Assembly: GCF_003334385.1 (NCBI RefSeq)
Contig: NZ_QOWN01000131.1
Length of the DNA: 1,053 nt
Origin: Escherichia coli
Lineage (GTDB): Bacteria > Pseudomonadota > Gammaproteobacteria > Enterobacterales > Enterobacteriaceae
Reading direction: 5' to 3' (one strand)
The notes beneath the pieces were generated by a model that was given only the letters and a program-made list of their open reading frames with translations, was not told where the DNA came from and did no database searches. This document shows, one piece after another, positions 116-1,053 of the stretch; the stretch's first letter is position 1, and each line of letters begins with the position of its first letter. A program made the position numbers and the translations under genes.

Positions 116-313
116 ATGCTGAAACAGCAGGATATGACCGAAACCGCCAGAGTGGTGTTTAATGAATTAAGTGCCACCGAACCGGCGACAGTCGGGGAGA
201 TTGCGCAGAATACTTACCTTTCACGTGAACGCTGCCAGTTAATACTGACCCAGCTTGTTATGGCGGGGCTGGCAGACTATCAGTTCGGTTGTTACAGACG
301 CCTTCAGTCCTGA
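116..313 (+). CDS. Small hypothetical protein, 65 aa, putative winged-helix DNA-binding protein
   Basis: ATG 116 with SD-like AAGGGA 7 nt upstream; stop TGA 311-313. Translation: MLKQQDMTETARVVFNELSATEPATVGEIAQNTYLSRERCQLILTQLVMAGLADYQFGCYRRLQS. The pattern (T-x-x-EIA ... hydrophobic helix LILTQLVMAGL ... aromatic/basic tail) resembles small wHTH regulators such as MarR-like or PapI/FaeA-like proteins; this is pattern-based inference, not a database hit. Frame 2 is open from the window start, so the ORF track's GTG 29 or a start outside the window cannot be excluded; ATG 134 is another in-frame alternative. Confidence 0.55.
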   Translation: MLKQQDMTETARVVFNELSATEPATVGEIAQNTYLSRERCQLILTQLVMAGLADYQFGCYRRLQS

Positions 314-327
314 AGGCTTTTTTATTT
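300..327 (+). terminator. Rho-independent (intrinsic) transcription terminator
   Basis: Perfect 7-bp stem GCCTTCA (300-306) pairing with TGAAGGC (311-317), 4-nt loop GTCC (307-310), followed by the T-tract TTTTTTATTT (318-327). The stop codon TGA (311-313) of the upstream ORF lies inside the stem. On the minus strand the hairpin is not followed by a U-tract, so it is unidirectional. Confidence 0.7.
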
Positions 328-340
328 GTGGTAAATGGGC

Positions 341-371
341 GGCTGGTGGGTGTTAGGGGCACTCACCAGCC
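341..371. repeat. GC-rich imperfect inverted repeat / stem-loop (12-bp stem, 7-nt loop), function unknown
   Basis: GGCTGGTGGGTG (341-352) pairs with CACTCACCAGCC (360-371): 11 Watson-Crick pairs plus one G-T (G-U in RNA) at 349/363; loop TTAGGGG (353-359). No downstream U-tract (followed by ATCTGCTCATGCG). Confidence 0.5.
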
Positions 372-412
372 ATCTGCTCATGCGTCCGGATCACAAGCAA
401 ACCTCAGGCCCA

Positions 413-431
413 CTGCTTTGCGCAAAAGCAG
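413..431. promoter_or_regulatory. Imperfect palindrome, candidate operator or protein-binding site upstream of the methyltransferase gene
   Basis: CTGCTTT-GCGC-AAAAGCAG: half-sites CTGCTTT (413-419) and AAAAGCAG (424-431) are reverse complements apart from one extra A, centred on GCGC. Located 33-51 nt upstream of ATG 464. A weak sigma70-like pair (TTGCGC 418-423, 16-nt spacer, TATCAG 440-445) overlaps it, but the -10 is poor. Confidence 0.3.
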
Positions 432-463
432 AATGAGCCTATCAGAGACAGGCTTAATGATCC

Positions 464-1053
464 ATGCTTAGTACTGTAAAAATATCCAGTTGTGAGTTAA
501 TCAACGCCGACTGCCTGGAATTTATCCGGTCGTTACCCGAAAATTCTGTTGACCTGATAGTCACGGACCCGCCGTACTTTAAAGTGAAGCCTGAGGGCTG
601 GGATAACCAGTGGAAGGGCGACGATGATTACCTGAAGTGGCTGGACCAGTGTCTTGCGCAGTTCTGGCGGGTGCTGAAACCTGCCGGAAGTCTTTACCTG
701 TTCTGTGGCCATCGCCTGGCGTCTGACATTGAAATCATGATGCGTGAACGCTTCAATGTGCTGAACCATATTATCTGGGCGAAGCCGTCCGGACGCTGGA
801 ACGGGTGCAACAAGGAAAGCCTGAGGGCATATTTCCCCGCCACAGAGCGCATTCTGTTCGCGGAACATTATCAGGGGCCGTATCGCCCGAAAGATGCCGG
901 GTATGAGGCGAAGGGCAGGGCACTGAAACAGCATGTGATGGCCCCGCTGATTTCTTACTTTCGTGATGCGCGTGCTGCCCTGGGGATAACGGCAAAACAG
1001 ATTGCTGATGCCACAGGAAAGAAAAACATGGTGTCGCACTGGTTCAGTGCCAG
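464..1053 (+). CDS. DNA methyltransferase, beta-class amino-MTase (N6-adenine or N4-cytosine; DPPY favours N6-adenine), 5' partial - C-terminus beyond window end
   Basis: Frame 2 is open from ATG 464 to the window end (196 codons, no stop). The only canonical in-frame start after the TAA/TGA stops at 455-460 is ATG 464. Translation begins MLSTVKISSCELINADCLEFIRSLPENSVDLIVTDPPYF... Motifs: DLIVTDPPYF (residues 31-40, catalytic motif IV), RVLKPAGSLYLF (residues 69-80) and HIIWAKP (residues 102-108), in the order typical of the N6_N4 MTase family with motif IV N-terminal. The AdoMet-binding motif I (FxGxG type) is expected downstream, outside the window. SD is weak (ACAGG 448-452, 11 nt upstream). 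Confidence 0.9.
   Translation, partial: MLSTVKISSCELINADCLEFIRSLPENSVDLIVTDPPYFKVKPEGWDNQWKGDDDYLKWLDQCLAQFWRVLKPAGSLYLFCGHRLASDIEIMMRERFNVLNHIIWAKPSGRWNGCNKESLRAYFPATERILFAEHYQGPYRPKDAGYEAKGRALKQHVMAPLISYFRDARAALGITAKQIADATGKKNMVSHWFSA
472..491. promoter_or_regulatory. LexA (SOS) box-like palindrome inside the 5' end of the methyltransferase ORF
   Basis: TACTGTAAAAATATCCAGTT: CTG (474-476) - 10 nt AT-rich spacer - CAG (487-489), with 5' TA flank. Matches the E. coli LexA consensus TACTGTATATATATACAGTA at 16 of 20 positions, with all six core CTG/CAG bases intact. Lies at +9 to +28 relative to the A of ATG 464, which is atypical for a LexA operator. Confidence 0.4.

Follow-up and report, generated by a model that had tools for sequence, protein, structure and literature searches.

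A palindrome upstream of a late-operon methyltransferase gene in lambdoid prophages: the probable tip of a conserved, structured RNA leader

The 1,053-nucleotide (nt) stretch of Escherichia coli DNA analyzed here (contig NZ_QOWN01000131.1; "the window") is the head of the late operon of a lambdoid prophage of the Shiga toxin (Stx)/phiP27 type. A prophage of E. coli EC2 matches it at 100% identity, and it was matched in 2,206 of 5,426 complete E. coli genomes and in many Stx2-converting phages, in which the locus lies between the antiterminator gene Q and the tRNA and stx genes. The gene order is Q, pR'/tR', an open reading frame (ORF) for a winged-helix protein of 65 amino acids (aa), an intergenic element of about 130 nt, an N6_N4 methyltransferase (MTase) gene, two tRNA genes, and the lysis genes, and it is common to phiP27, SfV, mEp460, the Citrobacter phage phiNP, and Morganella and Providencia phages. 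Our subject is the intergenic element and a palindrome within it, at positions 413 to 431, which an initial annotation of the sequence had proposed as an operator for a dimeric regulator. The main features of the window are as follows.

116 to 313, plus strand: small ORF, 65 aa, phrog_331 (E = 1.8e-37); RefSeq coding sequence (CDS) with a winged-helix model
300 to 325, plus strand: terminator-like hairpin and T-run, GCCTTCAGTCCTGAAGGC then TTTTTTATTT, overlapping the stop of the small ORF and directly 5' of the leader
333 to 463, plus strand: conserved structured leader of about 130 nt between the small ORF and the MTase start (blastn, fold, and covariance model)
464 to 1053, plus strand: 5' part of the MTase gene (N6_N4_Mtase, PF01555, E = 4.7e-43; PHROG DNA methyltransferase families; RefSeq CDS; 352 aa in the full locus)

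Judged from the neighborhood gene order, the MTase is an orphan of the late operon, with no restriction gene; its match to HTH_3 is marginal (E = 0.06). Just 5' of window position 1 (locus L001, 8894 to 8993) lies a lambda-like pR' promoter (TTGATT, 17 nt, TAAATT), with two hairpins 3' of it; the more distal one is a strong terminator (CCCGCCGCCTGGCGGG and a T-run). This stretch is the pR'/tR' short-RNA unit of the prophage, and it gave no match to IsrK or to any Rfam family. The palindrome is about 500 nt 3' of pR', past two terminators, and the gene order after Q and pR' therefore places it within the Q-dependent late transcription unit. An equivalent of the hairpin at 300 to 325 is present in SfV, and N15 and phiKO2 have an annotated terminator at the corresponding place, 3' of their late promoter.

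The letters of 413 to 431, read directly from the window, are CTGCTTTGCGCAAAAGCAG. Two arms of 7 bp, CTGCTTT and AAAGCAG, are perfectly complementary and are separated by the 5-nt spacer GCGCA. Comparison with the reverse complement indicated that the dyad is one base out of register, so that the sequence and position first described stand, and the palindrome is not symmetric. The 3' end of the dyad is 33 nt from the A of the MTase ATG at 464, a start that agrees with the RefSeq CDS, which bears out the reported distance of about 35 nt. The reported exclusion of a LexA box also holds, the spacing being CTG-N13-CAG versus the consensus CTGT-N8-ACAG. When the 150-nt intergenic region was shuffled with its dinucleotides preserved, 7% of the shuffles contained a hairpin with at least 7 perfect pairs and a loop no longer than 6 nt, and the whole window has 3 such arm pairs versus 0.47 expected, a number reached in 35 of 1,000 shuffles. 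Taken alone, the palindrome is thus only mildly unusual; its significance comes from its conservation and not from the odds of chance.

A blastn search with positions 325 to 470 (146 nt) recovered 59 phage records from six genera, with identity falling to 73% in the phages of Morganella and Providencia. The leader was found in phages of Escherichia, Shigella, Klebsiella, Citrobacter, Hafnia, Morganella, Providencia, and Proteus. In an alignment of nine phages, long blocks of the leader are invariant, while protein identity in the flanking small ORF drops to 42%. Further sampling by the E. coli MTase protein, by the MTase of a Morganella phage (which is independent of any leader sequence), and by an invariant 21-mer brought the collection to more than 100 distinct versions. 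The initial annotation had treated conservation among homologues as decisive; the dyad is indeed conserved, and it is linked to the MTase gene. The distance from the leader start to the MTase AUG is held within 127 to 133 nt.

The conserved nucleotides do not encode a conserved peptide. The frame opening at ATG 335 (MGGWWV...) runs for 6, 7, 13, 16, 33, 43, or 45 codons depending on the phage, and its ATG is ATA in one version and GTG in N15-type phages. Since its length varies while the nucleotides stay conserved, a leader peptide was rejected as a conserved protein, and the constraint acts on nucleic acid. The tandem Trp codons in MGGWW are a reading of the Chi sequence. The frame ends after 43 codons in phiNP-type phages, with an ATGA that overlaps the MTase start, and after 45 codons in phiP27-type phages, 8 nt beyond that start.

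A covariance model was built on 47 sequences, and 69 loci were realigned to it. Six phages that had not been used in building the model were matched, with E values from 1e-22 to 1e-7.

Hafnia phage yong2: 90.7 bits
phiKO2: 58.8 bits
PY54: 56.3 bits
VHML: 46.6 bits
N15: 39.6 bits (E = 2.6e-9)
Aeromonas phage phiARM81ld: 34.4 bits

The model also confirmed 40 of 67 genome loci collected with a degenerate P3 pattern (P3 being the helix formed by the palindrome); 39 of these 40 are in named Enterobacterales species, and 1 is in a soil metagenome-assembled genome labelled "Proteobacteria." The model did not confirm the non-enterobacterial matches to the degenerate pattern, which lay in Methylococcaceae, Bradyrhizobium, Bacillota, and other groups, and these were treated as chance. 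The window had no match in Rfam 15 at E values up to 10 that approached a family threshold (best P26, 16.6 bits against a gathering score of 36, E = 1.3), and up to that E value no riboswitch family was matched. Across the 3.2-kb neighborhood only the tRNAs reached the gathering score, the other two matches listed lay far below it, and no IsrK was found upstream. Full-text literature searches returned no description of the leader, which is apparently undescribed so far.

On the plus strand the leader has a predicted fold of -63.5 kcal/mol (z = -4.5), equalled by none of 200 shuffles; the minus strand gives z = -2.9. The same two-domain fold was predicted for 10 of 12 representatives, ranging from the E. 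coli to the Proteus type; L086 forms no rod, and L274 closes the rod with a different helix. Domain 1 is a long hairpin (335 to 381) in which P1 and P1x make up an interrupted helix of 18 bp, and domain 2 is an irregular rod of about 75 nt (388 to 463), comparable in length, whose tip is the stem-loop at 407 to 439. The helices are listed below.

335 to 381, plus strand: helix P1x, 335-340 AUGGGC with 376-381 GCUCAU, extending P1
341 to 371, plus strand: hairpin P1, arms 341-352 and 360-371 with a 7-nt loop; inverted repeat I2, with Chi GCTGGTGG at 342-349 in the 5' arm
373 to 401, plus strand: alternative helix altB, 373-382 with 392-401; excludes P1x and H5/H6
388 to 463, plus strand: closing helices of domain 2 in minimum-energy folds, H5 (388-393 GGAUCA with 458-463 UGAUCC) and H6 (395-398 AAGC with 452-455 GCUU)
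407 to 439, plus strand: stem-loop made of GGC/GCC (407-409/437-439), a C410 bulge, CA/UG (411-412/434-435), a 2-nt bulge (432-433), and then P3
413 to 431, plus strand: helix P3, the reported palindrome, CUGCUUU and AAAGCAG around a GCGCA loop
433 to 457, plus strand: alternative hairpin P4, about 434-440 UGAGCCU with 450-456 AGGCUUA; competes with the base of the P3 stem and with H6

These helices make up two sets. P1x, H5/H6, and the base of the P3 stem belong to state 1. State 2 is formed by 336-340 UGGGC with 408-412 GCCCA, 373-382 with 392-401, and 434-440 UGAGCCU with 450-456 AGGCUUA. P3 is present in both states, and UGAUCC-AUG, ahead of and including the MTase start codon, is free in state 2 only.

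Covariation supports the state-1 structure. In the 69-locus alignment, 83.2% of its cells hold standard pairs, versus 25 to 45% when partners are slid by 1 to 3 columns, and 20 of 43 pairs are changed on both sides; these values were reached by none of 500 shuffles. In a wider set, 80.7% of cells are paired and 36 of 43 pairs are changed on both sides, the slid controls over state 1, state 2, and the wider set together giving 25 to 47%. Pairs are thus kept by compensatory change above controls, as in conserved RNAs, and in the wide set this includes all 7 pairs of P3.

P1 shows the clearest covariation of the leader: pairs changed on both sides number 7 of 12 in the 69-locus alignment and 12 of 12 in the wider set, and both arms are wholly replaced elsewhere (GACTGTAAAAGTG/CACCTTTACAGTC, GACCGATGAGTG/CACACATCGGTC, GACAGTGAGGATG/CATCCCCACTGTC, and, in N15, CGCGGGA/TCCCGCG). 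P1x is in the minimum-energy fold of every representative, with 97.8% of cells paired and compensatory changes in L274 (AUAGGC/GCCUGU) and phiARM81ld (CGUGGC/GCCACG). In the rod, the Proteus-type clade has GGA/UCC at H6 in place of AAG/CUU, and the H5 pair 390/461 is G-U in 40 sequences and A-U in 26. P4, of which the hairpin 436 to 454 was flagged by a scan, has 80.8% of cells paired and 2 pairs changed on both sides.

The intermediates of these changes carry strand information. Counts of G-U versus A-C are 67:9 in P1x, 70:7 in P1, and 76:15 in P4, and this excess of G-U argues that these helices are selected on the plus strand, that is, in the late mRNA. The pair 407/439 behaves similarly, with 44 G-C, 12 A-U, 11 G-U, and 1 other (A-C), and with 31 G-C, 9 A-U, and 7 G-U in a second set.

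The palindrome itself is kept as a helix across the clades, while its sequence, loop, and register change. Its versions are given below as 5' arm, center, and 3' arm where these can be divided.

Window type: CTGCTTT-GCGCA-AAAGCAG
SfV/Klebsiella type: CTGCTTT-AGCGCA-AAAGCAG
phiNP: GCTTTAGCGCTAAAGC, a perfect 16-mer
Proteus/Morganella type: TGCTT-G-TGTGCACA-AAGCA
Another Providencia type: GCTTA-TACGCGTA-AAGC
phiKO2: TTGCTG-ATTGCGCAA-CAGCAA
N15: GCGAT-GCGC-ATCGC
VHML: CGCTT-CATCGATA-AAGCG
phiARM81ld: CGCTTTGCAAAGCG

PY54 has the phiKO2 arms (TTGCTG/CAGCAA). All 7 P3 pairs show compensatory changes in the wide set (e.g., U-A 42 and G-C 5; C-G 41 and G-C 4). The arm cores TGCTT and AAGCA are 7, 8, or 9 nt apart depending on the clade, with a bulge on one side only; this variable half-site spacing and these asymmetric bulges argue against a rigid dimer bound to a duplex. 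In most clades the outer two palindrome pairs are lost, and (A)GUG, located two bases further 3', becomes the partner of CAC(U). When 56 distinct versions of 407 to 439 were folded in isolation, about 50 gave a nested three-helix stem, and 5 Proteus/Providencia versions of the AGCTT type were shifted. The variable spacing, the displaced outer pairs, and the covarying flanks argue for a single-stranded fold rather than a duplex operator. The arms and flanks of P3 are in addition more conserved in sequence than pairing alone demands.

At the DNA level, no promoter was detected at the dyad; the only promoter-like signal is pR', about 500 nt upstream. The initial annotation had taken TTGCGC (418 to 423) as the sole sigma-70 -35 candidate for the MTase. 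It has no usable -10: the hexamers 16 to 17 nt 3' of it, TATCAG and ATCAGA, lack the invariant final T of such an element, and a promoter scan found no sigma-70 promoter on either strand of the window and, in the leaders of SfV and a Morganella phage, no promoter-like site on either strand. TTGCGC itself is replaced by TTAGCG or TTGTGT in other clades. A near-invariant TGTGRAAAT motif at 327 to 336, directly 5' of P1x, resembles an extended -10 (TGnGAAAAT) in SfV-type phages; the window version is weaker and gave no match in the scan. Transcription starting at this motif would yield an RNA that begins at the foot of P1. A promoter at the dyad or at this motif was left unproven, the scan being empty in three clades and the hexamers weak by eye. 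P3 as a Rho-independent terminator was rejected, there being no U-run 3' of the hairpin (AAUGAGCC follows on the plus strand and UGGGCCUG on the minus strand) and no entry at P3 in the terminator scan. An MTase recognition site at the dyad center was rejected as well: the centers GCGC, GTGCAC, ACGCGT, and ATCGAT differ among close enzymes, and GCGC has no adenine.

The MTase start lies at the other end of the rod. Its AUG has no GGAGG-like Shine-Dalgarno sequence within 10 nt, the upstream letters being ...ACAGGCUUAAUGAUCC-AUG. In the minimum-energy fold of the window, 458 to 463 are paired and 382 to 385 pair with 464 to 467, so that the AUG itself is paired; across the 12 representatives, the mean unpaired probability of positions -7 to +3 is 0.11 to 0.62. 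The predicted fold thus combines an occluded start with a fixed leader-to-AUG distance. The 3' end of E. coli 16S rRNA reads ...GGAUCACCUCCUUA, and UGAUCC is complementary to its GGAUCA. Judged by its letters, H5 looks like an anti-ribosome-binding-site helix. Positions 388 to 394 (GGATCAC) copy the 16S rRNA 3'-end segment GGAUCAC, of which UGAUCC (458 to 463) is the complement. GATC (Dam) sites occur at 389 to 392 and 459 to 462, and the second of them, ahead of the AUG, does not vary among the lambdoid clades.

The state-2 helices, which exclude parts of state 1, are conserved too. Compensatory changes in altB are independent events: the pair 375/399 is U-A in 21 sequences, C-G in 19, and A-U in 11; 378/396 is U-A in 42 and C-G in 26; and 376/398 is G-C in 59 and A-U in 7, with the change from G-C to A-U falling inside the Proteus clade. 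Overall, 74.8% of altB cells are paired, versus 20 to 45% in slid controls. Loci score about as well with a state-2 model as with state 1, with 80.9% of cells paired and changes on both sides of 17 pairs. A joint change is seen in phiARM81ld, where the 5' strand reads CGUGGC and each of its two alternative partners reads GCCACG. The conservation of both sets, each of which excludes the other, suggests that the leader probably switches MTase translation; interconversion of the two folds is likely but unproven. A ribosome-driven switch was not supported, since masking around AUG 335 gave neither altB nor an open start in most representatives.

The upstream gene supplies a candidate regulator. 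Pfam matches of the small ORF are weak (TrmB, MarR, and DprA_WH). Its AlphaFold model has a mean predicted local distance difference test (pLDDT) score of 90.9 and consists of three helices and a wing (H-H-H-wing), a bare winged helix. Foldseek neighbors include the DNA-binding domains of IclR and MarR, methyltransferase dimerization domains, and SelB (ranks 33, 46, and 49). Model and matches agree with the winged-helix assignment of the initial annotation, and the product, a member of a family of unknown function, appears on this modelled evidence to be a real winged-helix protein. Homologues of phrog_331 adjoin the leader in SfV, mEp460, phiNP, Morganella and Providencia phages, N15, phiKO2, and PY54, although the proteins of lambdoid and N15-like phages are only 22 to 25% identical. 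In N15, phiKO2, PY54, and PhiR46_1, the phrog_331 gene is gp51, and the late promoter and terminator lie between gp51 and the leader. In N15-like linear-plasmid prophages the leader is directly 3' of the annotated late promoter and terminator, and gp51 is upstream of that promoter, beside a putative partition site.

In VHML and phiARM81ld, phrog_331 was not found among the neighbors of the leader. Conversely, L135, phiSTEC1575-Stx2k, and PhiR5_1 carry the small ORF and P1 without P3 and without the MTase. In phiARM81ld (L289, 1194 to 1544), a diverged leader precedes a gene for a Com-like translational regulator, phrog_6417, which overlaps the start of the MTase homologue. The small ORF itself had no Com match in PHROGs or Pfam, the Com-like gene being seen only in this Aeromonas relative.

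On balance, we consider that the dyad is probably the apical helix of an RNA stem-loop in an apparently undescribed, widely distributed structured leader that controls the late-operon MTase; that the effect is on translation is inferred. The acting form of the element would be folded plus-strand RNA and not double-stranded DNA. P3 would nucleate the rod and hold its two strands in register, closure of the rod would keep the ribosome-binding region of the MTase shut, and the state-2 helices, which keep P3 and free the bases before the AUG, would allow translation to be turned on and off. The neighboring winged-helix protein, a ribosome arriving from upstream, and processing by an RNase are candidate triggers. 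A broader proposal, which we regard as possible though doubtful, is that such a two-state switch is widespread in temperate phages of Enterobacterales and in those of Vibrio and Aeromonas and controls, on a signal specific to the phage, whether the first long gene of the late operon is translated. The signal might be phrog_331, as a translational regulator that binds an RNA hairpin, or the passage or speed of Q-modified transcription with coupled ribosomes.

Several observations weigh against an RNA leader of this kind. The center of P3 is self-complementary in every clade (GCGC, AGCGCT, GTGCAC, ACGCGT, GTCGAC, and ATCGAT), which would also be expected of a DNA dyad. P3 and its extension show no plus-strand bias (A-C 47 versus G-U 20), and the mismatches in altB (373-382/392-401) are nearly all A-C (146 A-C, 2 G-U, and 24 other), an unexplained pattern that was seen by eye in N15 as well. 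Weakened pairs, protonated A-C wobbles, and a minus-strand constraint are possibilities, and we take the pattern as evidence that the picture is incomplete. With altB or state 2 enforced, the predicted fold is less stable by a median of 5.3 kcal/mol (range, 0 to 12), and folding with positions -12 to +15 around AUG 335 masked leaves the MTase start closed in most representatives. The GAUC/GAUC helix of H5 is conserved in the lambdoid clades and absent from N15-type leaders. Finally, the alignments used for the pair counts (A4, A6, and A8) were fitted to the models, and part of the sampling used exact P1 or P3 patterns, so that the invariance of those segments is partly by construction.

Other explanations of the dyad differ in how far they depart from an RNA leader. 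The closest to it holds that P3 and its flanks (GGCCCA... / ...GAGCCUAUCA) are an mRNA site for phrog_331 or for a Com-like protein, which would open or close the ribosome-binding region as Mu Com does for mom. We judge this rather unlikely in that specific form; it is a compatible refinement of the leader proposal and not its opponent. Such a site would explain why phrog_331 adjoins the leader in lambdoid and N15-like phages despite its divergence, why P3 arms and flanks are conserved beyond the needs of pairing, and why a Com-like gene stands between leader and MTase in phiARM81ld, and it would suit a protein modelled as a bare winged helix whose neighbors include the SelB domains that bind the selenocysteine insertion sequence (SECIS). 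However, VHML and phiARM81ld have the leader with no phrog_331 found next to it, the small ORF and P1 also occur without P3 and MTase (L135, phiSTEC1575-Stx2k, and PhiR5_1), and the fold matches are generic (E of about 1e-3), with the DNA-binding IclR and MarR ranking equally. The operator of the initial annotation, a site at which the winged-helix protein or the MTase itself would bind duplex DNA as a dimer and repress the MTase promoter or block elongation, is a weaker alternative and, in our view, unlikely. A conserved dyad with an always self-complementary center, a winged-helix gene as a conserved neighbor, and a P3 without plus-strand wobble bias of its own would all suit it, and a size of 19 to 21 bp is that of MarR- and IclR-type operators. 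Yet promoter-like sites are missing from the window, SfV, and the Morganella phage, TTGCGC is not conserved, the half-sites vary in spacing by 1 to 2 bp with asymmetric bulges, the arms of N15 and phiKO2 differ even though both phages carry phrog_331 as gp51, the element persists without a detectable adjacent phrog_331 in VHML and phiARM81ld, and the HTH_3 match of the MTase is marginal. Moreover, 407-409/437-439 covary through G-U and not A-C intermediates, and a duplex operator explains neither these pairs nor the other 100 nt. A double-stranded operator lying over a promoter, as first suggested, is therefore not what the promoter scans of three clades, the arm spacing, and the covarying flanks indicate.

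The leader could also act in RNA processing or stability, or be released as a stable RNA, with RNase III or RNase E sites or protective hairpins that would separate the message of the small ORF from that of the MTase, tRNA, and lysis genes; P3 would then be a structural module only. Both T7 and the N leader of lambda have RNase III sites in intercistronic helices of the kind represented here by the 18-bp interrupted helix of P1 and P1x and by the rod of comparable length. In every case the leader comes after a terminator and before the first long gene of the late operon, and tRNA genes that need processing lie downstream. A simple processing site would nevertheless have no need for alternative conserved pairings, and the 3' end of the structure is locked at a fixed distance to the MTase start or, in phiARM81ld, to the start of the Com-like gene instead; we consider this explanation very unlikely. 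Least probable of all, and hardly credible to us, is that the signal belongs to a minus-strand antisense RNA or that the palindrome is a by-product of chance or mutation. The altB mismatches, nearly all A-C, would be G-U on the minus strand, which folds well (z = -2.9) and on which the A-run before 335 would become a U-run after the P1 hairpin; the palindrome alone, moreover, has a chance expectation of 7%. Against a minus-strand product stand the strong plus-strand wobble bias in P1, P1x, P4, and the pair 407/439 and the absence of a promoter-like site on the minus strand of the window, while conservation and covariation across phage families rule out chance. A structured mRNA leader with P3 at its tip remains the reading that we prefer.

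Some further features of the locus are worth recording. Directly after the MTase gene, tRNA-Ile and tRNA-Arg genes (L001, 10563 to 10724) occupy the positions of ileZ and argO in Stx phages; the antisense strand of tRNA-Ile gave a sub-threshold match to a plastid 5' untranslated region (UTR) family, taken as an artifact of tRNA shape. Chi sites occur in the window at 342 to 349, in the P1 5' arm, and at 25 to 32. The 19-kb prophage stretch has 10 Chi sites versus 0.7 expected, 7 of them on the late-transcription strand, and, judging by lambda, Chi in the orientation of the late strand would face RecBCD entering from the cos end. Chi was rejected as the cause of P1 5'-arm conservation: it is replaced in Proteus-type, N15-type, and other versions that keep the hairpin. 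Mosaic junctions fall at about 333 and about 353 to 385 of the window. Stx2c-type phages are similar only from 333 onward, and the PhiR5_1, phiSTEC1575-Stx2k, and L135 loci share only positions 1 to 353/385 (the small ORF and P1), so that P1 with its Chi site is located at a recombination boundary. In L135, an AraC-like cargo gene takes the place of the MTase after the small ORF and P1.

Two loci carry altered leaders. L192, from IMG/VR, has a deletion at the equivalents of about 378 to 416, between direct repeats CCATCTGCT (equivalents of 369 to 377 and 409 to 417), which removes the 5' strands of altB, H5, and H6 and keeps P1 and a hybrid P3. L218 is a recombinant without everything 5' of the P3 3' arm. 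Both are ready natural mutants of the leader.

Should the leader prove to gate translation, it would account for the silence in lysogens, and the expression only late, of an orphan MTase without a Shine-Dalgarno sequence. It would also add to a well-studied phage regulatory region an RNA element that is absent from Rfam and from the literature searched, and it would suggest a testable function for phrog_331, a large phage family. If the two-state switch is real, it could also shape expression of the toxin operon in Stx phages, where one late transcript carries the leader, the tRNA genes, and stx. For annotation, the approximately 130 nt before these MTase genes would be better described as a structured RNA element than as a promoter/operator or a small ORF.

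By sequence or defining protein, the leader is not a member of the Mu com/mom, Gifsy-1, or RNase III leaders, yet it shares features with each. As in Mu com-mom, a DNA-modification gene stands at the end of a regulatory cascade, a gene for a small protein of about 62 to 65 aa lies directly upstream, and a conserved RNA stem-loop, predicted in the present case, encloses the start region of that gene; a Com-like gene even lies between leader and MTase in the relative phiARM81ld. In contrast to Mu, the small protein here is modelled as a winged helix rather than as the zinc-finger Com, the leader is larger (about 130 nt, with several helices) and unrelated in sequence, and the enzyme is an N6_N4 methyltransferase and not Mom.

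In the isrK-orf45-anrP region of Gifsy-1, the upstream ORF is conserved in nucleotide and not in amino acid sequence and its stop overlaps the next start (AUGA), and the first downstream gene is translationally silent until the upstream element is remodelled (PMC4825925). The position after a Q-type antiterminator gene and a terminated short RNA is alike, and in phiNP the ATG 335 frame similarly ends in AUGA after 43 codons. On the other hand, the window and its upstream region have no IsrK match, and the downstream gene in Gifsy-1 encodes an anti-repressor and not a methyltransferase. Identity with orf45-anrP was rejected, there being no DNA or MTase-protein similarity to Salmonella phages, and the relation is one of analogy only. 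Coupling through the upstream frame cannot be general here, because that frame is cut to 6 to 7 codons in many phages.

The RNase III hairpins of the lambda N leader and of T7 are, like the present helices, long, imperfect, conserved, and placed beside a ribosome-binding site in a polycistronic phage mRNA. Their folding or cleavage sets translation of the next gene. The sequences are unrelated, and two alternative conserved pairing schemes are found here. Systems of C protein and C-box or of SsoII-type MTases likewise keep a small helix-turn-helix protein or MTase, a palindromic site, and an MTase gene close together, which is the picture behind the initial annotation. They differ from the present locus, where an orphan late-operon MTase has no restriction gene, the small protein is a putative winged helix and not an Xre-type C protein, and the site behaves as a covarying stem-loop downstream of the small gene and far from any promoter. 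The comparison with SelB and SECIS, for which the fold similarity is generic (E of about 1e-2) with no sequence or functional link, indicates that a winged-helix domain of this size, such as the SelB domains among the structural neighbors of the small protein, can read an RNA hairpin.

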